DNA from: an uncultured Chloroflexia bacterium
Lineage (GTDB): Bacteria; Chloroflexota; Dehalococcoidia; Dehalococcoidales; UBA2162
Direction of reading: 5' to 3'
DNA: 64,000 bases
Assembly: GCA_963745605.1 (NCBI GenBank)
Contig: CAVUYC010000012.1
Location: 63,050 to 127,049, forward strand
Shown here: positions 2,748-50,309 of the stretch, one piece after another
How the letters are laid out: each line of letters starts with the position of its first letter
How positions within the stretch are numbered: position 1 is the stretch's first letter
The notes under the pieces: generated by a model
Database searches by the model: none
Seen by the model: the letters and a program-made list of their open reading frames with translations, nothing else
Told to the model about the DNA's origin: nothing
Made by a program: the position numbers and the translations under genes

Positions 2748-5318
2748 TCAATTGACCTCGACGGTCGAACCGTTGGGAGTCTTGATCACATCGATCCTCA
2801 CCGGGAAAGCATCGCGAAAGTCGTCCATATGCGTGATAACCAGTATCTTTTCAAAGCTCTCCTGAATCGAAGTGATGGCCTCTTTGACTTTTTCCATCCC
2901 ATTGGAATCCTGGGTCCCGAATCCTTCGTCAATGATCAACGTCGGAAGAGGAGCGCCGGCGCGTCTGGCCAGCATCTTCGACAGGGCTATCCTGACAGCA
3001 AAGTTGATCCTGAACGCCTCGCCACCACTGAACATCTCATAGCTGCGCGTGCCGAGCTCGTCTGAGATGTTGATATCGAGCGTCTCGAGGACATCTCCCC
3101 TCTTCGTCTCTCTCTGCGTCTCAAATCTCAGATGCATGCGGCTATCGGTCATTTTCGCCAAAAGAGTGTTGGCCTCTTCCTCGATTTCGGGTACAGCGGT
3201 CTCGATCAGGAGAGCCTGCACTCCCTTTTTCCCGAAAGCTTCGGCTAGCTCGCGATAGAGGGCCTCCTCCGTTGCCACAACAGACAGAACTCCTTCTCTT
3301 TCTTTCTTGAGGACTTCAAGCTGCTGGCAGCGCCTTACTCGTTCTCTTACTCTGCCCAACGCTTCCTGAGCTCTCCTGTGGCTATCGGCAAGATCAATAC
3401 GATGAGCCTCGGCGCTGGAAAGGTCTTCAGTTGCCGCCCGCAGCACCTGCAGTTCTGAGAGAAGATCGACTCTGGATTGCCTCAAGCCAACAATCGCAGC
3501 CCCAAGTTCCCCGGCCGCCTGTTGTCCCTTTGAGACGCTGTCCCTTGACTGTTCAACGAGTCGCAGGGCTTCGTCTAATCTTCGCTTGGCCGACTCGACC
3601 GGTTCCAGTTTGCCGATTTCGGCCCTTAGGCCCTCGTGGGCACCGGGGTCGTAACCGAGAGATATCAGGCTTTGGTCGAGCTCACGGATTTCCTCCTGCT
3701 CGACGGTCGCATAGTCTTTGCCCGACAGCTTCTCCTCCAGCTCCGACAGAGTCTCCCTTTCCTTCTCAACAGCAGCAGATGCAGAACGGGCACCGGCAAG
3801 TTCACTTTCAAGCAGGCCAATTCGAACCGACTGTGCGCTCTTGGTCTTCGCCACTTCGGATTCAGCGTCGCCGATCTGTCTCTCAAGCTGCAACAGCTGT
3901 CCCTTCTTGATGCGCAACCTCGCCGAGACAGACTCGGATAGATCAACCGCGGCGAGCTTCTCCTGGACATATTTACTGTGAATTACGACAAGGTGGTCCC
4001 CCGTCAACTCTTGCTCGCATAGGGGGCATTTTGCCTGGGGATTTGATTTGAGCAAGTCCAACTTCTCTTCAGTCATCGCAACGACGCCGTCAGACCTCAA
4101 CTTGTCTGCTTCCAGCATACGAATCTCAGCCAGTGCCATCTGGTGGTCATTCTTCTGCGATGCCACAGATTGTTCAAGACGCGCCGTTTCTTCAAGTCCA
4201 GATCGCTCTTCTTTGAGCTGATCCTCGATTATTGCTGTCCTTGCGGCTTTGCCTTCCAACTCCTCAACTCTTGCAGACAGGACCTTGTGTTCGGTCAACA
4301 CAGTTTGCCCCGCCCTTTGTACTGCCATGTCCAGCAAGTGTCGGCGTTGATTAAGGGCCGATGCGAGTCGAAGTCTCTGGTTATAGTCCTCGCTCTTCTT
4401 TCTTAGTTCCACAAGCTTCCCGTATTGTTCATCGATCGCCGACTGGTTGGCGATCACCTGCTCAAATTCTTGCACCCTCTGCTGACTGGCCTTAATCTGC
4501 CCCACCCAACGCTCCAGGTCTCTTGAAGCCTGAGTGATCTGCTCCTCGATTTGGGATGTCTGCTGCTGCTTGACTCTGAGCGATTCTCGGTTCTCCCGCA
4601 TCAATCGAAGGACGGACTCACACTCTGCGATACCTTGTTCGATCGCCTTCAATCGTTCCTCCACGGCGACCAGTTCGGCTTCGTAGGACGCCTTCTGTGC
4701 AAGCTCGACCCCGAATTCACGTATTGCGTTCTCGGCGACAGCCTTTTCAGAGGCACGCCGGACGGCCATTTGTCTTGCACCAATTTCAAGGCGATCGTAT
4801 TCAGAAAGCCCCAGTATGTTGGTGAGGACAGCCTTTCTCTCTGCCGGTGTCGAAACGGTGAATTGATCGGCGTGACCCTGGCGCAAGAAGGCACTGTTGA
4901 TGAAGGTCTCGTAGTCCATATGAAGGATATCAACGATCTTCTTCTCCGTCTGACCGATGCTGTCGCCCGTGATAGGCCTGAAATGACCTTCGTCTGATAT
5001 CTGAAGCTCGAGGGCACCTTGCCCGGAGGACCGCTGTGTCTTTGCCTTGGACCGTTTGCGCAACACGCGATAGGTCTGTCTTCCGACAGCAAAGTCGAAT
5101 TTGACCTCCATCGAGGACTCGCCCTGTCGTATCAGTTCATCATCTGATTTCGCCCTCGTCTTTCCCCACAACGCCCAGGTGATCGCATCGATGATCGAGG
5201 ACTTGCCGCTGCCGTTCTCCCCGCAGATGCTTGCGACGTGTATGCCAGCGAAGCTGAGAGTGGGAACGTTCTCGCCGAAGGGCATGAAATTCGAGAGAGT
5301 AAGGCTGACTGGAATCAT
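2748..5318 (-). CDS. sbcC: SbcC/Rad50-family DNA repair ATPase
   Basis: 856 aa; N-terminal Walker A GENGSGKSS, long coiled coil with central zinc hook CPLC, C-terminal signature FSGGE and Walker B LIIDEGFG. Confidence 0.85.
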   Translation of the reverse strand: MIPVSLTLSNFMPFGENVPTLSFAGIHVASICGENGSGKSSIIDAITWALWGKTRAKSDDELIRQGESSMEVKFDFAVGRQTYRVLRKRSKAKTQRSSGQGALELQISDEGHFRPITGDSIGQTEKKIVDILHMDYETFINSAFLRQGHADQFTVSTPAERKAVLTNILGLSEYDRLEIGARQMAVRRASEKAVAENAIREFGVELAQKASYEAELVAVEERLKAIEQGIAECESVLRLMRENRESLRVKQQQTSQIEEQITQASRDLERWVGQIKASQQRVQEFEQVIANQSAIDEQYGKLVELRKKSEDYNQRLRLASALNQRRHLLDMAVQRAGQTVLTEHKVLSARVEELEGKAARTAIIEDQLKEERSGLEETARLEQSVASQKNDHQMALAEIRMLEADKLRSDGVVAMTEEKLDLLKSNPQAKCPLCEQELTGDHLVVIHSKYVQEKLAAVDLSESVSARLRIKKGQLLQLERQIGDAESEVAKTKSAQSVRIGLLESELAGARSASAAVEKERETLSELEEKLSGKDYATVEQEEIRELDQSLISLGYDPGAHEGLRAEIGKLEPVESAKRRLDEALRLVEQSRDSVSKGQQAAGELGAAIVGLRQSRVDLLSELQVLRAATEDLSSAEAHRIDLADSHRRAQEALGRVRERVRRCQQLEVLKKEREGVLSVVATEEALYRELAEAFGKKGVQALLIETAVPEIEEEANTLLAKMTDSRMHLRFETQRETKRGDVLETLDINISDELGTRSYEMFSGGEAFRINFAVRIALSKMLARRAGAPLPTLIIDEGFGTQDSNGMEKVKEAITSIQESFEKILVITHMDDFRDAFPVRIDVIKTPNGSTVEVN

Positions 5319-11747: not shown

Positions 11748-13070
11748 CTACATCTTTATGAAGCCTTCATAGCGGCGCATCACTAGTTGCGCCTCCATCT
11801 GCTTCATGGTGTCCAAGACTACTCCGACTACAATCAGGAGGCCCATGCTGGACAATTGAATCGACTGCACGCTGGTAATCTCACGTGACAGGAACGGGAT
11901 TATTGCGATCAATGCCAGATAAAGGGCGCCCGCCCATGTAATGCGATTAATGACGTGATTCAGATACTCGGAAGTGTTCTTGCCCGGTCTAATGCCAGGA
12001 ACGAACCCTCCTTGCCTCTGCAAGGTACCACCCAAATCCTGCTGTTGGAAGATCACGGTCGTATAGAAGAACGTAAATCCAACCACCAGCAAGAAGTAAA
12101 ACACCCAATAGAACAAGCCCATGGGCAACGCTGTCTGCGGGTTAAACAAGTTATAGATCACGTTTGCTGCATTCTGAGGCTCTCCGGCAGCCTTCATAAA
12201 ATAGGACGCTATGACCCCCGGAAATAGCACGATTGAAACAGCAAAAATCAAGGGTATCATCCCGGCCGCATTCACCCTGATCGGAATGTGAGTGGCGCCG
12301 GACTGCCTGTACATCCTTCCTCCCCGGAAGGTTGTCTTGGCATACTGCACCGGAATACGCCGGTGAGCTTCCGTGAAGATCACGATCGCCACAATGGTCG
12401 CAAGACTGATCACCCCGTAGAAGATCAGACCAAACGTCTGCCCGGCCGCGAGCAGCCCGGTGCCGATAAGCTGCGGGTAGCCTGCAACAATTCCAGCGAA
12501 AATGATAATCGAGACACCGTTGCCAATCCCGTGCTCCGTGATCAGTTCGCCAAGCCACACAAGAAATACCGTGCCCGCGATCAACGCGGCAATCATGGCA
12601 ACGGTTTCAATAGGCGTGGCGCTTCCAATAACACCTGCATTTCTCAGAATGGTGAGCTGCCCCCAACCCTGCAGCCCTGCCATAGGAATGGTCAGCCAGT
12701 GCGTTACCCTGTTCATCCTGTCGCGCCCCGCCTCACCCTCCTGGCTCATCGCCTGCAGCCGGGGAATGACCGGGACCATCAGCGTCATAATGATGGAAGC
12801 AGTGATATACGGATAAACGCCCATCGCCGCCACACTGAAGTTCCTCATCGCTCCACCGCTGAACATATCCAGCATGCCGAGCAACGCGTTGTTGCTGAAA
12901 AGGCTTCTCAACTTCACCGGATCGACACCGGGAAGAGGAATATGAGCAACAAACCGGAAAATGACGATCAGTGCGAGCGTGAGCAAAATCCTCCGTCTCA
13001 AATCGGGAAGACGGAAGGCGTCCACCATCGCCTGAATCAGCCGGGGTCGAGTCGACCTCGGTTGCGACAT
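11748..13070 (-). CDS. secY: preprotein translocase subunit SecY
   Basis: 440-aa polytopic membrane protein between rplO and adk; ...MLDMFSGGAMRNFSVAAMGVYPYITASII... Confidence 0.95.
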   Translation of the reverse strand: MSQPRSTRPRLIQAMVDAFRLPDLRRRILLTLALIVIFRFVAHIPLPGVDPVKLRSLFSNNALLGMLDMFSGGAMRNFSVAAMGVYPYITASIIMTLMVPVIPRLQAMSQEGEAGRDRMNRVTHWLTIPMAGLQGWGQLTILRNAGVIGSATPIETVAMIAALIAGTVFLVWLGELITEHGIGNGVSIIIFAGIVAGYPQLIGTGLLAAGQTFGLIFYGVISLATIVAIVIFTEAHRRIPVQYAKTTFRGGRMYRQSGATHIPIRVNAAGMIPLIFAVSIVLFPGVIASYFMKAAGEPQNAANVIYNLFNPQTALPMGLFYWVFYFLLVVGFTFFYTTVIFQQQDLGGTLQRQGGFVPGIRPGKNTSEYLNHVINRITWAGALYLALIAIIPFLSREITSVQSIQLSSMGLLIVVGVVLDTMKQMEAQLVMRRYEGFIKM

Positions 13071-38213: not shown

Positions 38214-39563
38214 CTACAAAATCGGATAGTACTTTTCCAGCTCATACCCGGTGACCTGAACCCTGTACTGGTCCCATTCAATCCTCTTATTCTTCACGAA
38301 AGCGTCGAAAAGGTGGTCGCCGAGAGTCTCACGCATTAACTTGCTATTCTCGAAAAGCTGAAGCGCCTCCTGAAGGCTGCCGGGAAGCTGACCAATGCCT
38401 CGCCTGTTTCTTTCTGCCTCGCTCATGTGGTATACGTTTTCTTCCACGGGTGGGGGCAGTTCCAGCCCTTCCTTTATTCCCGCCAGGCCGGCGGCTAGAA
38501 GTACGCTGAAGCACAGGTATGGGTTGGCGGCGGGATCGGGAGAGCGTATCTCAAATCTTGTCTCTTTTTCGCCACCAACCTTGTAGTTCGGCAGCCTGAT
38601 CAAGTCAGAGCGATTCCGTTGTGCCCAGGACAGGTACACCGGAGCCTCATATCCCGGAACAAGTCGCTTGTATGAATTGACCCACTGGCTCGTTACTGCG
38701 GTGAACTCAGGCGCATACTTCAGCAGTCCCGCCAGAAAGCTTCCACCAATCTTCGACAGATAATATTTCGATTTGGGATCAAAGAACGCATTCGAGTCTC
38801 CACGGAAGAGTGACTGATGGACGTGCATGCCGCTTCCATTGATGCCGAAGACTGGCTTTGGCATGAACGTCGCGTACACGCCATGCATCAGAGCGATCTG
38901 CTTGACTACCAGTCGGTAAGTCATCACGTTATCGGCCATGGTCAGAGCATCGTCGTAGCGCATGTCAATCTCATGCTGGCTGATGGCAACTTCATGGTGC
39001 GACTTGTCAACAGCTATGCCCAATTCCTCCAACGCCAGTACGGTGTCTCGTCTCAAATCATGCGCCGCGTCATGGGGGTCCATATCGAAATAACCGCCAT
39101 TATCGAGCGGTTCGGTCCCCTTGTTGTCCTTGAAGTAGAAGTACTCCAGCTCGGGACCCACGTAGTAAATGTATCCGAGATCAGCAGCCTTCTTCAGATT
39201 TCGCTTCAAAACATACCGAGGGTCGCCATCGAAGGGGACCAGTTCGGGCGTGTATACGTCGCAGATCATCCTCGCGACCGGTCCATACTCTCTGGGCCTC
39301 CATGGAAGCAGCTGAAAAGTATCTGGGTCTGGCATCGCGATCATATCGCTTTCGTCGATGCGGACAAATCCTTGAATGGATGATCCGTCAAAACCGACCC
39401 CGTCCTCGAGGGCTCCCTCGAGTCCCTCTACTGGAATGGCAAAACTCTTCAGAAAACCCAGGATGTCGGTGAACCACAGTCGGACGAACTTAACGCCTTG
39501 TTCCTTGGCGGTCTTCAGGACATAGGCCTTGGCTTCTTTAGCGCTTTTCTCGGGGAGAGGCAT
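38214..39563 (-). CDS. glnA: glutamine synthetase type I
   Basis: 449 aa; ...FVRLWFTDILGFLKSF...FDGSSIQGF...GSGMHVHQSLF...NSYKRLVPGYEAP... Confidence 0.93.
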   Translation of the reverse strand: MPLPEKSAKEAKAYVLKTAKEQGVKFVRLWFTDILGFLKSFAIPVEGLEGALEDGVGFDGSSIQGFVRIDESDMIAMPDPDTFQLLPWRPREYGPVARMICDVYTPELVPFDGDPRYVLKRNLKKAADLGYIYYVGPELEYFYFKDNKGTEPLDNGGYFDMDPHDAAHDLRRDTVLALEELGIAVDKSHHEVAISQHEIDMRYDDALTMADNVMTYRLVVKQIALMHGVYATFMPKPVFGINGSGMHVHQSLFRGDSNAFFDPKSKYYLSKIGGSFLAGLLKYAPEFTAVTSQWVNSYKRLVPGYEAPVYLSWAQRNRSDLIRLPNYKVGGEKETRFEIRSPDPAANPYLCFSVLLAAGLAGIKEGLELPPPVEENVYHMSEAERNRRGIGQLPGSLQEALQLFENSKLMRETLGDHLFDAFVKNKRIEWDQYRVQVTGYELEKYYPIL

Positions 39564-39692
39564 AGGTCCTCCTCACGTTTCCGGAATGCCGGAATTATAT
39601 CATATAGACACGCCGCGTCCTTAAGGTCTGGCCAGCATCGAGCAATCCACATCTCTTCTATGGGTTGGTTCTGCCAAGTCTGCAGCGCATAA

Positions 39693-39730
39693 GACAGAGG
39701 AGGGCACCCTTGAGGGTGCCCTCCTCTGTC
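39693..39730 (-). terminator. 16-bp GC-rich hairpin downstream of glnK (terminator or attenuator; weak U-tract)
   Basis: GACAGAGGAGGGCACC (39693-39708) / GGTGCCCTCCTCTGTC (39715-39730), 6-nt loop; only TTAT follows on the minus strand. Confidence 0.5.
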
Positions 39731-39836
39731 GCAGATCTGAACAGGCCCAGATGTCGTAATAAAGATAGAACTCGTAAGGGTGATGGCGTAGCGCCACTGC
39801 CTCATATTCGACTTTGATTTTTAGGATGAGTGCCGT

Positions 39837-40208
<372 letters not shown>

Positions 40209-41441
40209 CTATGGGAGACCTCCGTAAGCTCTTTCACCGTGCTGAGATATGTCCAGACCGACCCTCTCTTCGACTTCGTTGACTCTCAGGCCGATGGTTG
40301 CCTTGACGGCCTGCGCCAGAAGCCAACTAGCTCCAAAAGAGTACGCCCACACCACCGCTACCGCGACGAACTGCTTGCCAAGAAGCGCGACGTTGCCCCC
40401 TATCAGACCGTTTGCCCCAGCAGAGTTTACGGACGCCAGGGCGAAGATCCCGGTAGCGATGGCTCCCCATGTTCCACCCATCCCATGGCAGGCCCAAACA
40501 TCGAGTGACTCATCCACGCCCATCTTCCTTGCACGAAAGACCATCAGGTAGTAAGAGATGAGCGACGCGATCGCACCGATCGGAATGCCGGCCCAGGGGG
40601 GGACGAACCCCGCCCCAGGGGTGATCGCAACCAACCCCACGACAGCTCCGGTAACGGTGCCGAGTAAAGATGGCCTCTTGTGAAACCAGCTCAGGAGCAT
40701 CCATGTGAAAGCAGCGGCAGCGGCAGCGGTGTTGGTAGCCACGAAGGCACTCGAGGCAAGGCCGCCCGCTGTAAGAGCGCTGCCTGCATTAAAGCCGAAC
40801 CAGCCAAACCACAACAGGGCCGCGCCGAGAACGACCATGCCTATGTTGTGAGGTTCCATGGCATCTTTCTTGTAGCCCTTTCGCGGACCGAGCACCATGG
40901 CCAGAGCCAGGGCTGCTACGCCGGCGTTAATGTGGACAACCGTTCCACCTGCAAAATCAAGGGCCCCTAGCTTGGACAGCCAGCCTCCTGACGCCCACAC
41001 CCAATGCGCCACCGGGGCGTACACTAGCGTTAGCCACAGGCCAGCAAACACCATCAAAGCGCTGAACTTCACCCTCTCCACCACCGCGCCTGTGAAAAGC
41101 GCAACGGTGATAATGGCAAACATGCCCTGGTACATCATGAACGCCAGATGAGGCACTGTAGTCGCGTACGTGGACGAGGGACTCTGGCCTACGTTAGCAA
41201 GGCCAAACCAGTCCAGGCCCCCTATTATCCCTGCCTTGTCCGGACCGAAGCTGAGACTATACCCATACAAAACCCAGAGCAGGCCCACCATCGCCAGAAT
41301 CGCGAAGCTCATCATGATGGTGGAAAGCGCATTCTTCCGCCTTACCATCCCGCCGTAGAAGAGGGCAAGGCCGGGAGTCATTAGCATCACCAACGCAGCG
41401 GACATCAAGATCCAGGCAGTATCGCCCGAGTTGATACCCAT
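40209..41441 (-). CDS. amt: ammonium transporter (copy 2, linked to glnK)
   Basis: 410 aa; MGINSGDTAWILMSAALVMLMTPGLALFYGGMVRRKN...DFAGGTVVHINAG... Confidence 0.93.
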   Translation of the reverse strand: MGINSGDTAWILMSAALVMLMTPGLALFYGGMVRRKNALSTIMMSFAILAMVGLLWVLYGYSLSFGPDKAGIIGGLDWFGLANVGQSPSSTYATTVPHLAFMMYQGMFAIITVALFTGAVVERVKFSALMVFAGLWLTLVYAPVAHWVWASGGWLSKLGALDFAGGTVVHINAGVAALALAMVLGPRKGYKKDAMEPHNIGMVVLGAALLWFGWFGFNAGSALTAGGLASSAFVATNTAAAAAAFTWMLLSWFHKRPSLLGTVTGAVVGLVAITPGAGFVPPWAGIPIGAIASLISYYLMVFRARKMGVDESLDVWACHGMGGTWGAIATGIFALASVNSAGANGLIGGNVALLGKQFVAVAVVWAYSFGASWLLAQAVKATIGLRVNEVEERVGLDISQHGERAYGGLP

Positions 41442-41488
41442 CTTTGCTAAACCTCCTCCTTCTTATATTTCTACTATGCGGTTGGTAT

Positions 41489-41526
41489 GTTTCTGACTCA
41501 TTTCGAGCGTGTTACGCCCGGGTTAA
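41489..41526 (-). promoter_or_regulatory. four direct pentamers with exact 11-bp phasing upstream of amt copy 2 (candidate OmpR/GlnR-type box array)
   Basis: Sense strand TTAAC-ccgggc-GTAAC-acgctc-GAAAT-gagtca-GAAAC (plus-strand pentamers at 41522, 41511, 41500, 41489); lies in the 96-bp amt-amt spacer. Confidence 0.5.
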
Positions 41527-41537
41527 AGTTCCAGGCG

Positions 41538-42773
41538 CTAAGGAACCGGGCCGGAGAACGTCTCACCGTGCTGGGAAATATCTAGCCCAACACGCTCCTC
41601 GACCTCGTTCACTCTGAAACCCACCACTGCCTTAAGTGCAGTGGCAAGCACCCATGTCATGCCAAATGAAAATGCAGCGATTACGCCCACTCCGACTAGT
41701 TGCTTCCATAGCAATGCACTTCCGCCAGATATCAACCCGTTGGCCCCGGCTGGGTTAACCGCTACTGTGGCGAAGATTCCGACAGCTATGACTCCCCACG
41801 CTCCTCCTATTCCATGGCAGGCCCAAACGTCGAGGGACTCATCCACACCCATCCGTTTCGCTCTGAACAACATCACGTGATATGAGAGGAGCGCCGCGAC
41901 CACTCCTATGGGCAACCCCGCCCAGGGTTGGATAAACCCCGCCGCCGGTGTGACCGCTGCCAGGCCTACTACAGCCCCGGTAGCCGCTCCCAGTAGGGAC
42001 GGTCTCCTGTGAAACCAGGACAAAAGCATCCAAGTCAGGCCCGCGGCCGCGCCAGCGGTATTGGTGGCCACAAACGCACTCGAGGCAAGGCCACCGGCAG
42101 TGAGCGTGCTTCCAGCATTGAATCCGAACCATCCGAACCACAGCAGGGCCGCCCCGAGCACTACCATCGCTATGTTGCTCGGCTCCATCGGTTCTCTCTC
42201 GCGGAAACCTTTTCGAGGACCGAGGACAATGGCGAGTGCCAGAGCGGAGACACCCGCATTCACATGCACTACCAGCCCGCCGGCAAAGTCGAGCGCGCCG
42301 AGCTTGCCCAACCACCCACCAGACCCCCAGACCCAATGCGCCACAGGGGCGTACACAAAGGTGAGCCAAAGAATAGCAAATACCATCAACGAGCTGAACC
42401 TGATTCTCTCAACTACCGCTCCAGTGAAGAGGGCAACCGTGATGATCGCAAACATGGCCTGATAGATCATGAAAGCTAGGTGAGGCACCGTGGTCGCGTA
42501 GACAGTCGACGGCGATTGACCTACGTTGACTAACCCGAACCAGTCGAGGCCTCCAATAATACCTCCCTTATCCGGGCCGAAACTGATGCTATATCCGTAG
42601 ATTACCCAAAGGACTCCTATCAGAAGCATGATGGCAAAGCTCATCATGATCGTTGATAAGACATTCTTCCGACGGACCATGCCTCCATAGAAAAATGCCA
42701 GCCCCGGCGTCATGAGCATGACCAGCGCCGACGAGGTCAGAATCCATGCGGTATCCCCGGCGTTAATCCCCAC
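41538..42773 (-). CDS. amt: ammonium transporter (copy 1)
   Basis: 411 aa, GTG start after GGAGGA; MGINAGDTAWILTSSALVMLMTPGLAFFYGGMVRRKN...; close paralog of copy 2. Confidence 0.93.
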   Translation of the reverse strand: MGINAGDTAWILTSSALVMLMTPGLAFFYGGMVRRKNVLSTIMMSFAIMLLIGVLWVIYGYSISFGPDKGGIIGGLDWFGLVNVGQSPSTVYATTVPHLAFMIYQAMFAIITVALFTGAVVERIRFSSLMVFAILWLTFVYAPVAHWVWGSGGWLGKLGALDFAGGLVVHVNAGVSALALAIVLGPRKGFREREPMEPSNIAMVVLGAALLWFGWFGFNAGSTLTAGGLASSAFVATNTAGAAAGLTWMLLSWFHRRPSLLGAATGAVVGLAAVTPAAGFIQPWAGLPIGVVAALLSYHVMLFRAKRMGVDESLDVWACHGIGGAWGVIAVGIFATVAVNPAGANGLISGGSALLWKQLVGVGVIAAFSFGMTWVLATALKAVVGFRVNEVEERVGLDISQHGETFSGPVP

Positions 42774-42856
42774 TTGACGTCCTCCAATAATTCACGAGTT
42801 GAGCCAATACGAGCTTTCGGCAGCAAAACACGAAACAACAAGCATATTGCGAAAAT

Positions 42857-42883
42857 GTTTCAGATATGTTTCGTGCACGTTAA
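42857..42883 (-). promoter_or_regulatory. three direct pentamers with 11-bp phasing upstream of amt copy 1
   Basis: Sense strand TTAAC-gtgcac-GAAAC-atatct-GAAAC (plus-strand pentamers at 42879, 42868, 42857); aligns with the promoter-proximal three of the amt copy 2 array, both followed by AT. Confidence 0.5.
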
Positions 42884-42886
42884 ATA

Positions 42887-42924
42887 GAAGCGGGGGCAAC
42901 TCAACCAGGAGTTGCCCCCGCTTC
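42887..42924 (-). terminator. strong hairpin terminator directly after the response-regulator stop codon
   Basis: GAAGCGGGGGCAACTC (42887-42902) / GAGTTGCCCCCGCTTC (42909-42924), 16-bp perfect stem, 6-nt loop, followed on the minus strand by TATTTAA. Confidence 0.7.
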
Positions 42925-42928
42925 TGCA

Positions 42929-43612
42929 CTAATGAGGGTCAAAATTTAGCTGTCGGCGCGGCAAACGGTAGCCGATATTCCGAACCGTCTCGATAAACGA
43001 GTGTGTGGGATCTTCTATCTTGCTTCTCAATCGTCGGATGTGCACGTCCACAGTTCGATCGCCTCCGAAATAGTCGAACCCCCACACTTTGTCCAACAGC
43101 ATTTCGCGTGTGCACACTCGGCCCTGATTGATAATCAGAAACTTCAGAAGTTCGTATTCCTTAAAAGTAAGTACAATTGGTCGATCGCCGACGAAGACCT
43201 CGCACCGTGCCTGGTCAATCCTGAGATCTCCGCAGACCAACTCTTGCTCGCTTAACGCGTTCGATGTGTGCAGGAGCCGTTTTACCCTGAGCTGCACTTC
43301 GTCGATGTTGATGGGCTTGGTGGCGAAGTCGTCGATCTTGCTGAATTGGCCGTTTGCTCGGCCTAGCAGGTCCCCGCGCACGACTCCCAGGATGGGCAAT
43401 CCGCTGTCTCCTTTGATCTCCGAAGACAGCTCCGATACCCTGGAATAGCTGTCACTCTCAATGATCACCAAATCAGGCTCCTGCCCACCACGCCAGTCTG
43501 TTAACGATCCGTCATCGAGAGCAAAGGCACATGTGTAACCGCTCTGGGAGAGATAACGTGTTAGCATCTCCCCACTGGCTCTATCCTGAGCAATAATGGA
43601 GACTCTGACCAA
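42929..43612 (-). CDS. orphan OmpR/PhoB-family response regulator with aspartate-less receiver domain (GlnR-like by context)
   Basis: 227 aa; winged helix LTFKEYELLKFLIINQGRVCTREMLLDKVWGFDYFGGDRTVDVHIRRLRSKI...VRNIGYRL; receiver has IIAQDRA (no DD), PDLVIIESD (Glu at the phospho-Asp position), ILGVVRG (no Thr/Ser), ATKP retained. Confidence 0.85.
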   Translation of the reverse strand: MVRVSIIAQDRASGEMLTRYLSQSGYTCAFALDDGSLTDWRGGQEPDLVIIESDSYSRVSELSSEIKGDSGLPILGVVRGDLLGRANGQFSKIDDFATKPINIDEVQLRVKRLLHTSNALSEQELVCGDLRIDQARCEVFVGDRPIVLTFKEYELLKFLIINQGRVCTREMLLDKVWGFDYFGGDRTVDVHIRRLRSKIEDPTHSFIETVRNIGYRLPRRQLNFDPH

Positions 43613-43620
43613 TTGCCCCC

Positions 43621-44379
43621 CTAATAGGCGTAAAGACGCCCGTAAGGTCGCAGATACTTTGGCGTAAGTTTGATGTACTTGTCCCCGAGTATCTTGTTCG
43701 TGTCGAGTCCGAAGTGCGCTCCGTACTCGGCAAGTAGCCCGTTGAGCACCTCGCGATCGCCGTCGTCTAGGCTGCCCATGCCAACTTCCTTGCCGACCTG
43801 ATAGTCGTCTACTGTGCCCCGGATGTAGATGACCCCGGCGTGCATCCCCGTGCCTATAAAGTCGGCTTTGTGATGCATGGACCCATTCAAAGTGAGACCA
43901 AGCAGGACCAATACGCCTCCCGCCATGTACTCACCGGCGAAGTCCTGCGCCGTTCCACCAACCACCACTATTGGCTTCTTGCCTCTGTACTCTTTCATGT
44001 GGATGGCAGCTCGATATCCCACGTTGTCACGCACGAAGATCTTGCCACCGCGAGCCGACATGCCTATGATGTCCCCCGCATGGCCCTCTATCACAATCTC
44101 TCCCTCGTTCATTGTGTTGCCACATCCGTCCTGAGCGTTGCCATGAACAGTGATCCGGGGCCCATTCATAAACATGCCAAGGTCGTTTCCGGGAGTACCT
44201 TGAATATCAATCGTTACGGGGCGGTCAAGATCTGTACCGATATAGCGCTGCCCGCAGACATTCTTTAGCTCGATGATATCGATGCCACGGGACACAGCAT
44301 CTCGCAGCTTCGTATTGAGGTCTTTGAACAGGAGGCCACAGGCATCCACAGTGACTCTGGTTTCAACAGTCGTCTTCAT
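43621..44379 (-). CDS. glutamate synthase GXGXG-domain subunit (GltB C-terminal domain as a separate protein)
   Basis: 252 aa; beta-helix repeats ...IQGTPGNDLGMFMNGPRITVHGNAQDGCGNTMNEGEIVIEGHAGDIIG... Confidence 0.85.
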   Translation of the reverse strand: MKTTVETRVTVDACGLLFKDLNTKLRDAVSRGIDIIELKNVCGQRYIGTDLDRPVTIDIQGTPGNDLGMFMNGPRITVHGNAQDGCGNTMNEGEIVIEGHAGDIIGMSARGGKIFVRDNVGYRAAIHMKEYRGKKPIVVVGGTAQDFAGEYMAGGVLVLLGLTLNGSMHHKADFIGTGMHAGVIYIRGTVDDYQVGKEVGMGSLDDGDREVLNGLLAEYGAHFGLDTNKILGDKYIKLTPKYLRPYGRLYAY

Positions 44380-44380
44380 T

Positions 44381-45886
44381 CTAGTCCCCTACCATTCTTA
44401 CACCGAGGATGTCGAGCTCTTTATCACTTAAGCCGATCCCCCTGAGATGAAGCCGGTTCCCCCGCAGACTCTCGATGGCGTTCACCCCGAGTCCTCCCAG
44501 GATATCCTTGAGTTCCAGGCTCCAGCCCCTGAGCAACCCGGCAAGTCTGCGTGAACTGATCTCAGGGTTCAAACGCTTTCCGAGAAATAGGTCGCTTGTC
44601 GATATGCCCCAGGCGCATTTTCCGGTGTGGCATTGCTGACAGATGGTACATCCCATAGCCACCAACGCGGCCGTACCGATGTTGACGGCGTCTGCGCCAA
44701 GTGCAATTGCTTTCGCAACATCACCTGCGCTTCTGATGCCCCCGGAGATTACGATGGACGCCTGGTTCCGTATGCCTTCTTGTCTCAACCTGGTGTCCAC
44801 CGCTGCGAGTGCCATTTCGATGGGAATCCCCACGTTATCGCGGATTACCTTTGGCGCCGACCCAGTCGCGCCCCTGAGACCGTCAAGCACGATTATGTCG
44901 GCTCCGGCCCTGACCATTCCGCTGGCAATTGCCGCCGAGTTGTGCACCGCAGCAATTTTCACCGAGATGGGTTTCGTGTAATTCGTGGCTTCCTTCAGAG
45001 CGAAGATGAGCTGAGCCAAATCCTCGATCGAATATATATCATGTTGAGGTGCAGGAGACAGGGCATCGGTTCCCTTGGGTATCATGCGAACAGCCGATAC
45101 TTCAGCGCTTACCTTTTCTCCTGGCAAATGTCCGCCTATGCCCGGCTTGGCTCCCTGGCCGATCTTGATTTCCACAATTCTGCCAGCGTCGAGGTACTCC
45201 TGATGCACTCCGAACCTACCCGATGCCACTTGAACGATAGTGTTCTGGGCATACTTGTAGAGGCTCGGATGAAGCCCACCCTCTCCGGTATTCCACATTG
45301 TTCCCATCTCTGTGGCGGCCCTGGCCAGCGACTCCTGAGCGTTTAGACTGACGGCGCCGTAAGACATGGCCGAGAACATCACGGGCACCAGCAGCTTCAC
45401 CTGGGGGGCAATATTCGTTTTTAGACTCACCCCGTCCAACCCCACCTCCACCCTGTCCGGCTTCCTGCCCAGGTAAGTAGTCAACTCCATGGGTTCCCGA
45501 AGAGGATCAATCGAGGGATTGGTAACCTGACTGGCGTTAAGGACCAGGTGGTCCCAGTACACCTTCTGACCCTTGTCATCACCCATGCCGGTCAGCAGCA
45601 CGCCACCAGTCTCGGCCTGCTTGATGATGTCTTCGATATACTCCGGTCGCCAGTTGTCATTCTGCCTGTAGGCGAGCTCGTTCTTTTTTATGTTCAACGC
45701 TTTCGTAGGGCAGAAAAGGACGCATCGATGGCACCCTACACAATTACCCTCGTTGCTCTTGACCTCGTCGTCATCAGCATCGTAGTAGTGCGTCTCAAAG
45801 CTGCATTGGTTCACGCAGACTTTGCACCGGATGCACCTCTCTTTGTTCCGCTCAACTTCGAATCGGCCTGGCAAATAGGTCTTCAT
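44381..45886 (-). CDS. glutamate synthase FMN/synthase-domain subunit with N-terminal 2x[4Fe-4S] ferredoxin domain
   Basis: 501 aa; CIRCKVCVNQC...CVGCHRCVLFCP, then ...MSYGAVSLNAQESLARAA...NTGEGG...KIGQGAKPGIGGHLPG... Confidence 0.88.
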   Translation of the reverse strand: MKTYLPGRFEVERNKERCIRCKVCVNQCSFETHYYDADDDEVKSNEGNCVGCHRCVLFCPTKALNIKKNELAYRQNDNWRPEYIEDIIKQAETGGVLLTGMGDDKGQKVYWDHLVLNASQVTNPSIDPLREPMELTTYLGRKPDRVEVGLDGVSLKTNIAPQVKLLVPVMFSAMSYGAVSLNAQESLARAATEMGTMWNTGEGGLHPSLYKYAQNTIVQVASGRFGVHQEYLDAGRIVEIKIGQGAKPGIGGHLPGEKVSAEVSAVRMIPKGTDALSPAPQHDIYSIEDLAQLIFALKEATNYTKPISVKIAAVHNSAAIASGMVRAGADIIVLDGLRGATGSAPKVIRDNVGIPIEMALAAVDTRLRQEGIRNQASIVISGGIRSAGDVAKAIALGADAVNIGTAALVAMGCTICQQCHTGKCAWGISTSDLFLGKRLNPEISSRRLAGLLRGWSLELKDILGGLGVNAIESLRGNRLHLRGIGLSDKELDILGVRMVGD

Positions 45887-45895
45887 GGTTCTTCC

Positions 45896-46672
45896 TTAGG
45901 TCCTCACTGGAATGCCCCTCTGGGCAAGGTACTCTTTTGTCTGTTTGATTGAGTAAGTGCCGTAGTGAAATATGCTCGCCGCAAGCACAGCGTCCGCCTT
46001 GCCAGCGACTACCGCCTGGTAGAGGTCTTCGGGAGTTCCCGCCCCGCCGCTGGCGACGACCGGCACCGTGACGCTTTCGGATATTGCTTTAAGAAGCTCA
46101 AGATCATACCCTGCTTTCGTTCCGTCAGCGTCGATGCTATTCACCACTATCTCGCCCGCTCCGAGTTGGACTGCCTTCTGAGCCCACTCAACAGCATCCA
46201 GTCCTGTGCCTCGGCCCCCGTCGGCGCCCGTGTAAATGAAGACCTCCCAACGGGTGGGATCCAAACCTGGAACTCGCTTGGCATCCATCCCGAGTACTAT
46301 GCACTGACTTCCAAAATGTCTGGCTCCGTCACGTATAAGTTCAGGAGTGCGCACTGCGGCCGTGTTGATAGACACTTTGTCAGCACCTGCCTCAAGCATT
46401 CGCCGCATATCGTCGACAGATCTTAGTCCGCCACCCACCGTCAGGGGAATGAATATCTGCCTGGCCGTCCTCTCCACAACATCCATCATGATCGGTCTGT
46501 AGTCACTGGAAGCCGTGATGTCATAGAACACAAGCTCATCGGCACCTTCCTCGTAATAATGCGCCGCCAGCTCAACGGGGTCTCCGGCATCTCGGTGTCC
46601 CTTGAATTGCACTCCTTTTACTACCCTGCCGCCCTTGACATCAAGGCAGGGAATGATGCGTTTTGTAAGCAC
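45896..46672 (-). CDS. hisF: imidazole glycerol phosphate synthase cyclase subunit HisF
   Basis: GTG at 46672 overlapping the upstream stop (TAGTG): (M)[54 protein letters not shown]...SINTAAV...VASGGAG...AASIFHYG. Confidence 0.9.
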
Positions 46673-47808
46673 TATCCTATCCTGCTTATCGCAGCCTCCG
46701 GTGTGACCAGCGGACGCTTCAGGCTGCCGATAATCGGTTCGCCGCCAGTCGGACTCCACGACTTGTCCAAATCTGGACAAATCAGCCTTATCGCCGACTC
46801 TTCCGACGAAAGGAAGAGCACTTGACCCTTGACCCCCACCGTCAATGGCCGCAGCCTGATACGGTCAGTAAGTCCGATCATCTCTCCTTCATGGGCGATG
46901 ATTATAGTGAACGGACCATTCATGAGAAGGCTTGCGTAGACCTGCCTCAACGCTCGGACCAGCGCCTTCTCCTTTTCCGGCATTCGCTCGATCGCATCCC
47001 ACAGGGGAGGGGCGAATACCTTCGCTACCAGCTCAATCGGCAAGTTATGTCTTCGCACAAGCAGATCCACAGCGTACGCCAGCACTTCAGTATCGGTCTG
47101 CATGGTGCACACATATCCAAACTGCTCGAGATATCTCCTGTTGATCCCGTAGGACGAAATCTCGCCGTTATGAACTACGGTCCAATCGAGGATTGAAAAT
47201 GGGTGCGCGCCCCCCCACCAGCCTGGGGTGTTCGTCGGAAAGCGGCCGTGGGTAGTCCACAGATACCCCTCGTACTCCTCCAGTCTGAAATAATCGGCAA
47301 TCTCCTCCGGATACCCCACTCCCTTGAAGACACCCATGTTCTTTCCACTTGAAAACACAAAGCTGTCCTCAAGTTTGGTGTTGATCTGCATCACTTTTTC
47401 CACGACATAGTCGTCCGCCGATCTGCCCTCTAGCTTGATGGGCGGGATGTCGAGGAAGTAGCGCCGCACGACCGGACCGATTGGTATCGCCGCAGTTGGT
47501 CTCGTTGGTATTTCTTGAGCATCGACGACACGGAATTGGCTCTTGAGAAAATTCTCCGTGGCGTCCTGCCCGGCCTCGCTCGAGAACATGATATGAAATG
47601 CATAAAGGTCCGCGTGTTCCGGGTAAAGACCGTACACAGCGAAACCACCACCCAGCCCGTTTCCTCGAAAATGCATGTTTGCGATCGCTTTGATCACGCC
47701 CTCGCCAGAAAACCTCTTGCCCGAGGTGTCCATAGCCCCGAAGAGCGAACAGGCATCGATTACTTTCTCGTCATCATTCGGATTGCTGATTATGCGCAGG
47801 TCTTTCAT
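46672..47808 (-). CDS. class II glutamine amidotransferase subunit (GltB N-terminal domain as a separate protein)
   Basis: 378 aa; ...[42 protein letters not shown]...[21 protein letters not shown]...[10 protein letters not shown]; the nucleophile Cys is preceded by about 19 aa (propeptide or mis-set start). Confidence 0.8.
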
Positions 47809-47885
47809 TTCGTGCTCCGATTTACCTCACCGGTAGGCCTTGGCGTGAGAAATGCTTCCCTATCGACCCTGGCCTTCTCGTCCGG

Positions 47886-49229
47886 CTAGTCTCCGCCCAT
47901 GTCTTCTTTCGTTTCGTCTTTCACGGTCAAAGCATGAAAGCCCTCGGGCACCAGCCCCAATCTTTCTTTGAGCAGCGTTTCCGGCAGGGAAGTGAGACCG
48001 AAATTGGCAGAGACCAGTTCACTTTTGAACTTACCGACTTTAACCCTGTCTCTCATCAGGCCCAGCATGACGCCTGACCTGTCGACGTCGCCACAAAGCA
48101 CCATTCCCACCACAATATCGTCCTTGATGACGACCTTCCTGATCTGATGATCTGTGCGAGTCCCTATGGTTTCAAAGCTGTTGTCGGGAGGAACCGATAT
48201 TCCCGCAGACGCTATTGCTAGTCCGAAGTACTTCAGCGAATTCATTGCCGTTCCGCCGCTGTATTCGGTGGGCCGTCCTGCCATGTTAAGTCCGGCAACC
48301 CTTCCGCCGATGTAGGCGTTTGGCCATATCGGGCTCAGCCGATTGCTTTGGTACACGAAATCATAGGCCTCGGCAGCATCACCGCAGGCATATATCCCGT
48401 CAGAAGAAGTCATCATGTGCCTGTCTACCAGAATTCCGCGGTTGGTCTTGATGGGGGTGCCTGCCACAAGGTCAAGCCTGGGTCTTACTCCGATGGCCAT
48501 TACCAGCATCTGGCACACGATTTCGCGACCATCGTCCAGCGAAACGCTCGTAATCCCGCCTTGTTCCGTTTTGGCCTTGGCGACAGTATGGTTGGTCACC
48601 ACCTCAATTCCCGCCTGCTCAAGCGCCTCCCTGGCGACCGCAGATGTCTCTTCATCGATGATCGTGTTAAGGACCCTGTCCTTCATTTCCACAATGGTAA
48701 CCGAGACATTCCTTTTGACAAGAGCCTCGCTCACGCTGAAGCCGATGAGGCCTCCGCCTATTACTACCGCATGAGTACGTTCGCTGCCCCGCCTCTCCAG
48801 GAATTTGTCTATCGCTTTGGCGTCATCGAGAGTGGTAAACGTAAAGAAGTCGTCTTTGGTTGCCCCCACCACCTGAGACACAATAGGGGTCCCGCCCGGA
48901 GCGAGCAGTAGGCTCTCCCAAGCTACGGTCTGGGAATCGCCCAATTCAACGGTGCGGCACGCGACATCAACTTTTGTTACTTTCTTTCCAAACATCGTGT
49001 TGACGCCGTTCTTCACATAGAAGTTCGAAGGGCGGTAAAGCATTCGATCCAGGGTCGCGTGCTTGGCCAGATACTCGGAGATCATCGGCCTTGAATATGC
49101 CGGATACGGCTCTTCCGAGATGAGAGTGATAGAGCCGGCCTTGTCTACCAACCTTATCGCCTCGATCGCGCCGATTCCGCCGGCCGAATTGCCTATTATG
49201 AGATATTTCGCCTTAATCTCTTCTGCCAT
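47886..49229 (-). CDS. FAD-dependent pyridine nucleotide-disulfide oxidoreductase family protein (NADH-oxidase-like; probable electron-input subunit of the split GOGAT)
   Basis: 447 aa; YLIIGNSAGGIGAIEAI (FAD fold), HAVVIGGGLIGFSVSEAL (NAD fold), ...IYACGDAAE... Confidence 0.75.
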   Translation of the reverse strand: MAEEIKAKYLIIGNSAGGIGAIEAIRLVDKAGSITLISEEPYPAYSRPMISEYLAKHATLDRMLYRPSNFYVKNGVNTMFGKKVTKVDVACRTVELGDSQTVAWESLLLAPGGTPIVSQVVGATKDDFFTFTTLDDAKAIDKFLERRGSERTHAVVIGGGLIGFSVSEALVKRNVSVTIVEMKDRVLNTIIDEETSAVAREALEQAGIEVVTNHTVAKAKTEQGGITSVSLDDGREIVCQMLVMAIGVRPRLDLVAGTPIKTNRGILVDRHMMTSSDGIYACGDAAEAYDFVYQSNRLSPIWPNAYIGGRVAGLNMAGRPTEYSGGTAMNSLKYFGLAIASAGISVPPDNSFETIGTRTDHQIRKVVIKDDIVVGMVLCGDVDRSGVMLGLMRDRVKVGKFKSELVSANFGLTSLPETLLKERLGLVPEGFHALTVKDETKEDMGGD

Positions 49230-49243
49230 GGAACTTCCTTACC

Positions 49244-49864
49244 CTACTGGATTGCGCGCCTGATAAAGTTGTCGTACATCCGCAACCCTGGCACACCGCT
49301 CTTCTCCGGGTGAAATTGGGTTGCCACCAGATTGCCTTTTGCGATAGCGCTGCATACATTGACCCCGTATTCTGCTTCCCCGATGACAACGGACCTGTCT
49401 TCCGGCACGGCATAGTAGCTGTGCACGAAATAGAAATTCGTGTTATCGGCAATGCCTTCGAAGACGGGATGCTTCTTCAACTGTTTTACCTGATTCCAGC
49501 CCATATGCGGGGTCTTTAGCCCCGGTGGCAGCAACTTCACCTGACCACGAATCACGTCAAGGCAATCGCAGTTTCCGTCTTCTTCGCTACGGGTGAGAAG
49601 CACCTGAAGCCCAAGACATACGCCGAAGAACGGCTTGTCCTCCGCTATATACTCTCGGATGGGATCCATCATCTGCCTTTTCTTTAAGCTGCTCATGGCC
49701 TGGGCCGCCGCCCCCTGCCCGGGGAAAATGACTGCCTTCGCGGTGCGTAGATCCGCAACTGAGTCGGTTATTTTGGGACTGTAACCAAGCTTCGACAGAG
49801 CATTGGCAACGCTCTTGATATTGCCGGCACCGTAATCCAGGATCAGGACTTCAATTAGTGACAT
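49244..49864 (-). CDS. hisH: imidazole glycerol phosphate synthase glutamine amidotransferase subunit HisH
   Basis: ATG at 49864: MSLIEVLILDYGAGNIKSVANALSKLG...PGQGAAAQAM...FFGVCLGLQVL (Cys nucleophile)...FVHSYY...ATQFHPEKSG. Confidence 0.9.
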   Translation of the reverse strand: MSLIEVLILDYGAGNIKSVANALSKLGYSPKITDSVADLRTAKAVIFPGQGAAAQAMSSLKKRQMMDPIREYIAEDKPFFGVCLGLQVLLTRSEEDGNCDCLDVIRGQVKLLPPGLKTPHMGWNQVKQLKKHPVFEGIADNTNFYFVHSYYAVPEDRSVVIGEAEYGVNVCSAIAKGNLVATQFHPEKSGVPGLRMYDNFIRRAIQ

Positions 49865-50309
49865 CGGTTGCTGGAGCCTCGCCATAGACTAGTGCTTCGT
49901 TGGGGCAATTCGCGACGCAGTACGGCATTTCTTTCCCCTGGCACAAGTCACATTTTATAATTTTGCCCTGGTTCGTGTCTCTCTTTGGAGCCGATACAGG
50001 ACAGGCGAGGACACAGGTCCAACAGCCAATGCATTTTTCGGTATCCACGGTGACCACGCCGGTGTCTGGATTCTTGCTCAATGCACCGCTCAGGCACGAA
50101 TACACGCACAGCGGCTCGTCGCAATGGCGGCACTGAAGAGCAAAGGACACCGGACGGGCTTCCTCAACGCGCACGGCTGCCAGTGGGGGAGCCGTCTTCC
50201 CGTTGAACGCCTTGATCAGATCCTCGGTCGGAGAGTGAGCCAGCCTGCAATACACCTCACAGAGGTGACATCCAATACAAACATCGCTCTTTGCGTAGAC
50301 TCTCTTCAA
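49851..50309 (-). CDS. 4Fe-4S dicluster/polyferredoxin-like protein
   Basis: 152 aa, TTG start after GGGGGA; CIGCHLCEVYC, CRHCDEPLCVYSC, CIGCWTCVLACP, CDLC...CVANCP. Confidence 0.8.
   Translation of the reverse strand: MKRVYAKSDVCIGCHLCEVYCRLAHSPTEDLIKAFNGKTAPPLAAVRVEEARPVSFALQCRHCDEPLCVYSCLSGALSKNPDTGVVTVDTEKCIGCWTCVLACPVSAPKRDTNQGKIIKCDLCQGKEMPYCVANCPNEALVYGEAPATDVTN

Follow-up and report, generated by a model that had tools for sequence, protein, structure and literature searches.

A phased four-box array in the amt1–amt2 spacer of a Chloroflexota locus is a candidate operator of the adjacent GlnR-like regulator

Organization of the locus

The 64-kb stretch of DNA analysed here, referred to as the window, contains a block of genes that all lie on the minus strand in the order hisH-like GATase, Pyr_redox_2, GATase_2, hisF-like, Glu_synthase with Fer4, GXGXG and a regulator gene, followed by amt1, amt2, glnK, a hairpin, glnA and a glutamine-dependent NAD synthetase gene. 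The segment at 43621-49885 (minus strand) holds split archaeal-type glutamate-synthase genes (GATase_2, Glu_synthase with Fer4, GXGXG and Pyr_redox_2) amid the hisH- and hisF-like genes. The distance from the end of these glutamate-synthase genes to the regulator gene is 8 nt, suggesting that the regulator is co-transcribed with them. The regulator gene itself (42929..43612, minus strand) codes for an orphan OmpR/PhoB-family winged-helix protein that is GlnR-like, has a degenerate receiver and is the proposed binder of two box arrays, one upstream of each amt gene.

The first amt copy, amt1 (41538..42773, minus strand), codes for a 411 residue protein that is 78% identical to the product of amt2 (40209..41441, minus strand), a 410 residue ammonium transporter (Pfam Ammonium_transp, E=1e-129). 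The P-II gene glnK (39837..40208, minus strand; Pfam P-II, E=2e-29, and NCBIfam P-II) directly abuts amt2, which would be the first gene of a putative amt2–glnK unit. A G+C-rich hairpin past glnK (39693..39730, minus strand) is the likely end of the amt2–glnK transcript, and glnA (38214-39563, minus strand) lies downstream of this hairpin. The glnK–glnA spacer includes an AT-rich TATATGATATAAT stretch, a possible glnA promoter that has no boxes. A 96 residue ORF (39515-39805, minus strand) that runs across the glnK terminator hairpin and into the start of glnA has no family match and is probably spurious.

A four-box array in the amt1–amt2 spacer

The spacer between the two amt genes contains four pentamer boxes on the minus strand, TTAAC (box 1, 41522..41526), GTAAC (box 2, 41511..41515), GAAAT (box 3, 41500..41504) and GAAAC (box 4, 41489..41493). 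Neighbouring boxes are 6 nt apart, and the array TTAAC-n6-GTAAC-n6-GAAAT-n6-GAAAC occupies 38 bp (41526-41489). Read on the minus strand, the whole spacer is TAG(stop)-cgcctggaact-TTAAC-ccgggc-GTAAC-acgctc-GAAAT-gagtca-GAAAC-ataccaaccg-CATAGT-agaaatata-AGAAGGAGGAGG-tttagcaaag-ATG. This direct reading agrees exactly with the box sequences, coordinates and 11-bp phasing reported in the initial annotation. Box 1 begins 11 nt beyond the amt1 stop codon (TAG, 41540-41538). The distance of 48 nt from the array to the amt2 start codon (ATG, 41441-41439), as first annotated, is right when counted to the A of the ATG, but not as the length of the intervening sequence, since 47 nt separate box 4 from the ATG.

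Two separate scans bear on the probability of such an arrangement. The pattern AAY-n8-AAY-n8-AAY-n8-AAY has exactly two matches in the 64 kb, with both strands counted. From 100 dinucleotide-preserving shuffles the expectation was 0.05 ± 0.22, and no shuffle (0/100) gave two or more matches. Both matches in the window are on the sense strand, and each lies directly upstream of an amt paralogue. A 38-nt weight matrix, trained on 11 orthologous arrays with the window left out, gives 30.8 bits for the array upstream of amt1 and 25.8 bits for the array in the amt2 spacer. In 100 Markov simulations, the per-64-kb maximum averaged 5.1 (sd 3.3) and the largest value was 14.9. No third matrix site is present in the 64-kb window, and a two-box scan of the window returned nothing credible besides the two arrays, the next matches (3986, 21329 and 15558) lying inside long ORFs. 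Neither the matrix nor the two-box scan identified an array upstream of the glnA, nadE or glutamate-synthase genes of the window.

Putative promoter signals and spacer RNA

Exactly 10 nt past box 4 lies a putative -10 hexamer, CATAGT (41473..41478, minus strand), for which the family consensus is TAnAcT. Positions 2, 4 and 6 of the hexamer are invariant among 11 aligned promoters and position 1 is at least 90% T; the window has C, not T, at position 1. The same 10-nt spacing between box 4 and the -10 hexamer is found in 13 of ~20 arrays. Relative to the inferred transcription start, the promoter-distal box 1 would extend from ~-60 to -56, box 2 from ~-49 to -45, box 3 from ~-38 to -34, over the -35 position, and box 4 from ~-27 to -23, downstream of that position. 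At -35 the sequence is ATGAGT, a 3/6 match that is not a good -35. A ribosome-binding site, AAGGAGGAGG (41452..41461, minus strand), is located 10 nt before the amt2 ATG, and its GGAGG is conserved in the promoter alignment. A sigma-70 consensus scan of positions 39400-43700 identified no stand-alone promoter, which is expected for a promoter without a -35 and was therefore not counted against the model.

A terminator or riboswitch in the spacer was considered and rejected: the terminator scan called no intrinsic terminator between amt1 and amt2, the spacer RNA fold is no more stable than that of shuffled sequence (z-score +1.0), and no Rfam family matches the spacer, the near-matches being chance hairpin ones at the glnK terminator. 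Because the spacer is free of terminators and structured RNA, a promoter for amt2–glnK would add to read-through from amt1 and not replace it. The initial annotation had proposed that amt2 and glnK may have a regulated promoter of their own inside the duplication; the -10 hexamer at a fixed 10 nt after box 4 and the unstructured, terminator-free spacer support this proposal.

A paralogous array upstream of amt1

The second array, TTAAC-n6-GAAAC-n6-GAAAC-n6-GCAAT (42846..42883, minus strand; 30.8 bits), ends 72 nt before the amt1 start codon. A strong terminator-like hairpin after the regulator gene (42886..42925, minus strand) ends 2 nt before this array. The orthologous array in L001, one of the related loci described below, scores 39.4. 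There is no convincing -10 hexamer at +10 of the amt1 array, where the sequence is TTTCGT, and thus the simple box/-10 geometry is not valid for both arrays. The hexamer 36 nt past the last box is TATTGG in the window and CATTAT in copy A of L001, and amt1 may have a different promoter geometry than amt2.

Conservation of the arrays in related loci

Homologues of the regulator come from Chloroflexota/Dehalococcoidia metagenomes and MAGs, and 11 genome loci (L001-L009, L016 and L019) share the gene order regulator, amt(-amt), glnK, glnA. Comparisons of these loci show that the arrays are retained, as the initial annotation had asked of relatives and of orthologous spacers in particular. First, a four-box array in 11-bp phase precedes amt in ten of the eleven loci (L001-L009 and L016), where it scores 34–49 bits and sits 39–248 nt upstream of amt; the relatives' consensus is GTAAC-n6-TTAAC-n6-GTAAT-n6-GAAAC, and L019 has phased two-box pairs only. 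Second, L001, L005 and L006, the three remaining loci in which amt is present as a tandem pair, all carry a canonical array in the amt–amt spacer. The array before the first amt copy is canonical in L001, whereas in L005 and L006 it has decayed or lost its phase, and in these latter two loci the glnK-proximal promoter seems better conserved than the first-copy one. The first-copy arrays of L005 (~3800-3859) and L006 (~12640-12714) are down to two boxes or phase-broken by an 8-nt jump. Third, in 1.06 Mb of fetched loci, every matrix match of at least 34 bits lies 40–250 nt upstream of amt, and matches of 20–28 bits precede glnA-type genes. Such weaker arrays are located before glnA-type genes in L017, L038, L039, L041 and L123, and before a Glu_synthase-like gene in L102.

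An alignment of ~100 nt from 11 promoters, comprising that of the window amt2, the B copies and the single-copy genes, resolves which positions are kept. The only invariant columns are those of the boxes (TAAC in box 1, TAAC in box 2, G.AA in box 3, and AAC plus the next A in box 4) and -10 positions 2, 4 and 6; the n6 spacers and the flanks vary freely. Window amt1 is 85% identical to copy A of L001 and window amt2 is 87% identical to copy B, compared with 78% between amt1 and amt2, and the duplication is therefore older than the split between the window and L001. The tandem amt genes of L005 and L006 seem to have arisen in a duplication of their own. Identity at four-fold degenerate sites is 25–37% in every comparison, which means saturation; since synonymous sites are saturated while the boxes are kept, box conservation reflects selection. 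The array is a real and non-random feature of the spacer, and it is conserved under selection together with a -10 hexamer and the regulator gene.

Several related loci exhibit further features. In L002 (7123-7305) and L003 (8936-9133), the array is separated from amt by a small ORF of 60 and 65 residues, respectively; both ORF products contain the motif LW..LSPRLA.G and have an acidic tail, and the window has no such ORF. No Rfam family was found in the long leaders of L002, L003 and L117. Upstream of amt in L125 (minus strand, from ~666 down) are the eight boxes GTAAC, TTAAC, GAAAC, GAAAC, GCAAC, TTAAC, GAAAT and GAAAC in perfect 11-bp phase, followed by 10 nt and then TATCAT, an arrangement reminiscent of the six-site S. 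coelicolor amtB promoter.

The adjacent regulator

Pfam detects the winged-helix domain alone in the regulator. No NCBIfam model is passed; the best, MtrA, reaches 120 bits against a cutoff of 300, and NblR is also below its cutoff. The receiver is without the N-terminal acidic pair and the conserved Thr, and in the acceptor region, ‘DLVIIESDS’, Glu52 replaces the acceptor Asp. In 41 family members the residues at the acceptor position are E23/D6/A5/V3/G2/Q1, and variation also affects the conserved Lys, so that the whole family looks phosphorylation-independent. No histidine kinase gene adjoins the regulator gene, the neighbours being the GXGXG/glutamate-synthase genes and amt1. Sensing by this protein would accordingly proceed by a route other than canonical Asp phosphorylation.

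The solved structures closest to the regulator are those of Mtb GlnR (8hih), RegX3 and S. erythraea GlnR (8hig, 8hml). When only the DBDs of PDB chains are compared, GlnR is the best match (96 versus ~75 bits with the single sequence, 133.8 versus 109.6 with the family profile), whereas RegX3 scores as high as GlnR in the full-length comparison. In its DBD, the window regulator shares 51–52% identity with GlnR and 48% with RegX3; the corresponding values across the wider Chloroflexota family are 51–61% and 41–47%. An NJ tree (94 columns), in which bootstrap values of the GlnR-containing clade are 3–18%, joins the family with Mtb and Sae GlnR apart from RegX3, places all 30 of 30 homologues with amt or glnA context inside that clade, and includes Acidimicrobiia regulators adjoining glnA in the GlnR group. 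A GlnR signature based on the base-contacting residues R186, V190, R193 and R194 was considered but discarded, since alignment with RegX3 reveals that the RTVDVHxRRLR helix is widespread among OmpR-family proteins. Since the Asp50/Arg52/Thr9 feature of GlnR is absent, the protein is called GlnR-like; by its sequence it would be GlnR-like rather than a proven GlnR orthologue, and it is most likely a Chloroflexota GlnR-like variant with a pseudo-receiver.

Homologues also lie immediately downstream of glnA in Acidimicrobiia/Solirubrobacterales MAGs (L032, L033, L036, L037, L042, L047, L054, L057, L063, L076 and L078), with 57–65% DBD identity to Mtb GlnR except in L076 (51%). The Chloroflexota-trained matrix identified no array in these glnA–regulator loci.

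One box per helical turn had initially been likened to the sites of tandemly binding OmpR-family proteins. An OmpR/PhoB-family gene two positions upstream, and an array that travels with this regulator and amt, are consistent with that assignment and make the regulator the most likely binder.

Proposed mechanism and alternative explanations

Taken together, these features make it likely that the 38-bp array is a four-site operator of the adjacent GlnR-like regulator and, with the -10 hexamer, forms an activator-dependent internal promoter for amt2–glnK. Because the layout of the window boxes equals the geometry of GlnR-TAC, we infer a promoter of the activator-dependent type. The identity of the binder, activation rather than repression, and nitrogen limitation as the trigger are inferences too. 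Four protomers would bind head-to-tail, one per helical turn, at ~-60, -49, -38 and -27, by analogy with that complex. The boxes and CATAGT, without a good -35, would constitute an activator-dependent promoter inside the amt1–amt2 tandem, and amt2–glnK would be driven from it besides any read-through that starts at the amt1 promoter, where a separate copy of the array is present.

The same regulator could instead bind the array and repress, blocking RNA polymerase and keeping amt2–glnK off under plentiful nitrogen. The boxes span ~-60 to -23, including the -35 position, and GlnR can be an activator or a repressor by binding position (PMC10235972). Against repression, the -35 is poor (ATGAGT, 3/6) and the region 39400-43700 has no stand-alone sigma-70 promoter, so there would be little to repress without an activator, and the geometry is that solved for the activation complex. 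In addition, amt–glnK operons are typically induced on nitrogen limitation, which also argues for activation. Repression by the adjacent regulator is therefore regarded as unlikely.

A third reading concerns the identity of the binder. The array might be a Pho-type box, or it might be bound by a different OmpR-family response regulator whose gene lies elsewhere; in the Pho case, ammonium uptake would be linked to phosphate status. A metagenome scan with the exact pattern KTAAC-n6-KTAAC-n6-GWAAY-n6-GWAAC is relevant here, in which the matches listed are mostly plain 11-bp tandem repeats and which involved no quantitative enrichment test. Among the matches listed, the nitrogen class consists of amt in L117, L125, L134, L138, L144 and L147, a glnA-type gene in L123 and a Glu_synthase-like gene in L102, with the regulator gene on the same contig in about half of these cases; L101, also among the matches listed, has a regulator fragment on a contig that ends before any downstream gene. 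The phosphate class among the matches listed consists of PstS-type PBP_like_2 genes in L084, L097, L122, L145, L149 and L157, a PstB-like ATPase gene in L086 and PhoU_div in L090. In at least eight contigs, the pattern is located 15–270 nt upstream of such PstS-type, PstB-like or PhoU_div genes, and from their sequence these sites resemble Pho boxes of other bacteria, built on a GTAAC/TTAAC core. Long perfect 11-bp GTAAC repeats also occur (L087, L100, L105, L110, L129, L136, L143, L158 and others); they are simple satellites with no relation to the operator, and exact-pattern searches for it are swamped by them.

Since the pentamer pattern is common to Pho-type boxes, the motif alone is not diagnostic of a regulator, and its presence before pst genes means that another OmpR-family protein could recognise the array. 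Two further points lean the same way: in S. coelicolor the amtB and glnA promoters are targets of PhoP as well as GlnR (PMC3561978), and JGI auto-annotation labels some of the regulator homologues ‘PhoP’. The array is assigned to the adjacent regulator because of conserved co-occurrence, not because of the motif. In the window and in every syntenic locus, amt is the only gene preceded by strong arrays and no phosphate gene has one. Array, amt and orphan regulator stay together across Chloroflexota, with a regulator identity of 42–56%. Furthermore, a Pho regulator needs a phosphorylatable Asp and a kinase, and the adjacent protein has no such Asp and no kinase gene beside it. A Pho-type or other distant regulator in place of the adjacent one is thus improbable, more so than repression.

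It could also be argued that the array is an inert relic of the amt duplication and that amt2–glnK is expressed by amt1 read-through only. In favor of this reading, the arrays are paralogues of each other, the amt1–amt2 spacer has no terminator, and box 1 lies 11 nt past the amt1 stop codon. However, the amt genes were duplicated before the window and L001 diverged, and saturation has been reached at four-fold sites, yet the boxes and the -10 spacing are kept; the n6 spacers diverged while the boxes stayed; and in L005 and L006 it is the copy-A array that decays and the spacer (copy-B) array that stays canonical. A relic is very hard to reconcile with this pattern. Finally, a chance origin of the phased pentamers, favored by the shortness of each box and nothing else, is refuted by two AAY matches against 0.05 expected in shuffles, by 25.8 bits against a null maximum of 14.9 from a matrix blind to the window, and by conservation of the boxes in relatives, and its probability is negligible.

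Significance of a proposed GlnR-like operator in Chloroflexota

The searchable literature, which is incomplete, treats the OmpR-type GlnR as an actinobacterial regulator and yielded no paper linking GlnR to Chloroflexota or Dehalococcoidia. If activation by the adjacent regulator is correct, nitrogen control in a large, mostly uncultured phylum would be readable from sequence, the 38-bp matrix would find the regulon in MAGs, and four-protomer activation would work with a receiver that is without the Asp considered essential in GlnR. The locus would also represent a case of tandem paralogues that each keep their own operator, and separate operators would allow glnK and the second transporter to be controlled apart from the first. 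A broader and more speculative proposal, of low probability, is that nitrogen control in Chloroflexota, Dehalococcoidia-like lineages included, runs via a sister family of actinobacterial GlnR, with the Asp-less receiver as a ligand or P-II sensor and the internal promoter separating GlnK from amt1. Control by the regulator of GlnK, its own signal transducer, would then be uncoupled from amt1, and four-site activation would be ancient and common to Chloroflexota and Actinobacteria, not an actinobacterial speciality.

Comparison with known regulatory systems

Known systems resemble the window arrays or their regulator to different degrees. Pho boxes of PhoB/PhoP consist of 11-nt direct repeat units (PMC3561978, PMC2275107), and like the window arrays these repeats replace the -35. 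Unlike a Pho regulon, in which sites precede phosphate-acquisition genes, the window has arrays before amt1 and amt2 only, that is, before ammonium transporters. The arrays co-occur with a regulator that has no phospho-acceptor Asp and no adjacent kinase, in contrast to the phosphorylatable regulator paired with PhoR in a Pho system.

Atypical, phosphorylation-independent response regulators of the OmpR family include NblR, HP1043 and ChxR. The window regulator is similar to these proteins in its degenerate receiver, the lack of a partner kinase and a winged-helix DBD that would act on direct repeats, but their targets and boxes are different. We know of no regulator of this type that controls amt–glnK.

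The closest resemblance is to actinobacterial GlnR. Its cis-element is a1(gTnAc)-n6-b1(GaAAC)-n6-a2-n6-b2, with the co-crystal consensus GTAAC, and in GlnR-TAC (8HIH) four protomers are arranged head-to-tail on a1-b1-a2-b2, with b2 downstream of a non-optimal -35 and a scaffold that starts at -64; the GlnR_DBD-DNA structure is 8HML, and GlnR activates or represses depending on where it binds (PMC10235972). The window array likewise consists of four 5-nt sites in direct repeat and 11-bp phase, with a consensus of GTAAC. Given a -10 hexamer 10 nt past box 4 and the start predicted from it, the window boxes would lie at ~-27, -38, -49 and -60, with the proximal site downstream of a poor -35 and the -10 ~10 nt further on, as in GlnR-TAC. 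The targets are also of the nitrogen-assimilation type, arrays preceding amt in ten syntenic loci and none being present at the window glnA, and the regulator is, as far as its receiver can tell, an orphan OmpR-family protein independent of Asp phosphorylation. Equivalents of R186, V190, R193 and R194 are present in the window regulator, although these are common in the wider family.

Several differences set the window system apart. The host phylum is Chloroflexota/Dehalococcoidia-like, not Actinobacteria, and the gene for the regulator forms part of a glutamate-synthase operon that lies immediately before amt. Support for orthology of the regulator with GlnR is weak. Dimerisation of actinobacterial GlnR needs unphosphorylated Asp50 with Arg52 and Thr9 (PMC10704036); this charge network is absent here, the window regulator having Glu52-Ser53-Asp54 and the family being variable. 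The order of box types is a-b-a-b in GlnR and a-a-b-b or a-a-a-b here, and with this exception the likeness to GlnR boxes that was noted initially is borne out by the pentamers and n6 spacing of published boxes (PMC10235972, PMC10704036) and by GlnR as the best DBD-only structure match. The M. smegmatis GlnR box, t/gTAAC-n6-Gc/aAAC (PMC10704036, Table 2), is nearly letter-for-letter the TTAAC-n6-GAAAC of the amt1 array and also differs little from the TTAAC-n6-GTAAC and GAAAT-n6-GAAAC pairs in the amt2 array. That box is defined as a 16-bp pair, whereas the Chloroflexota arrays extend the same unit to four, and in L125 to eight, consecutive phased sites.
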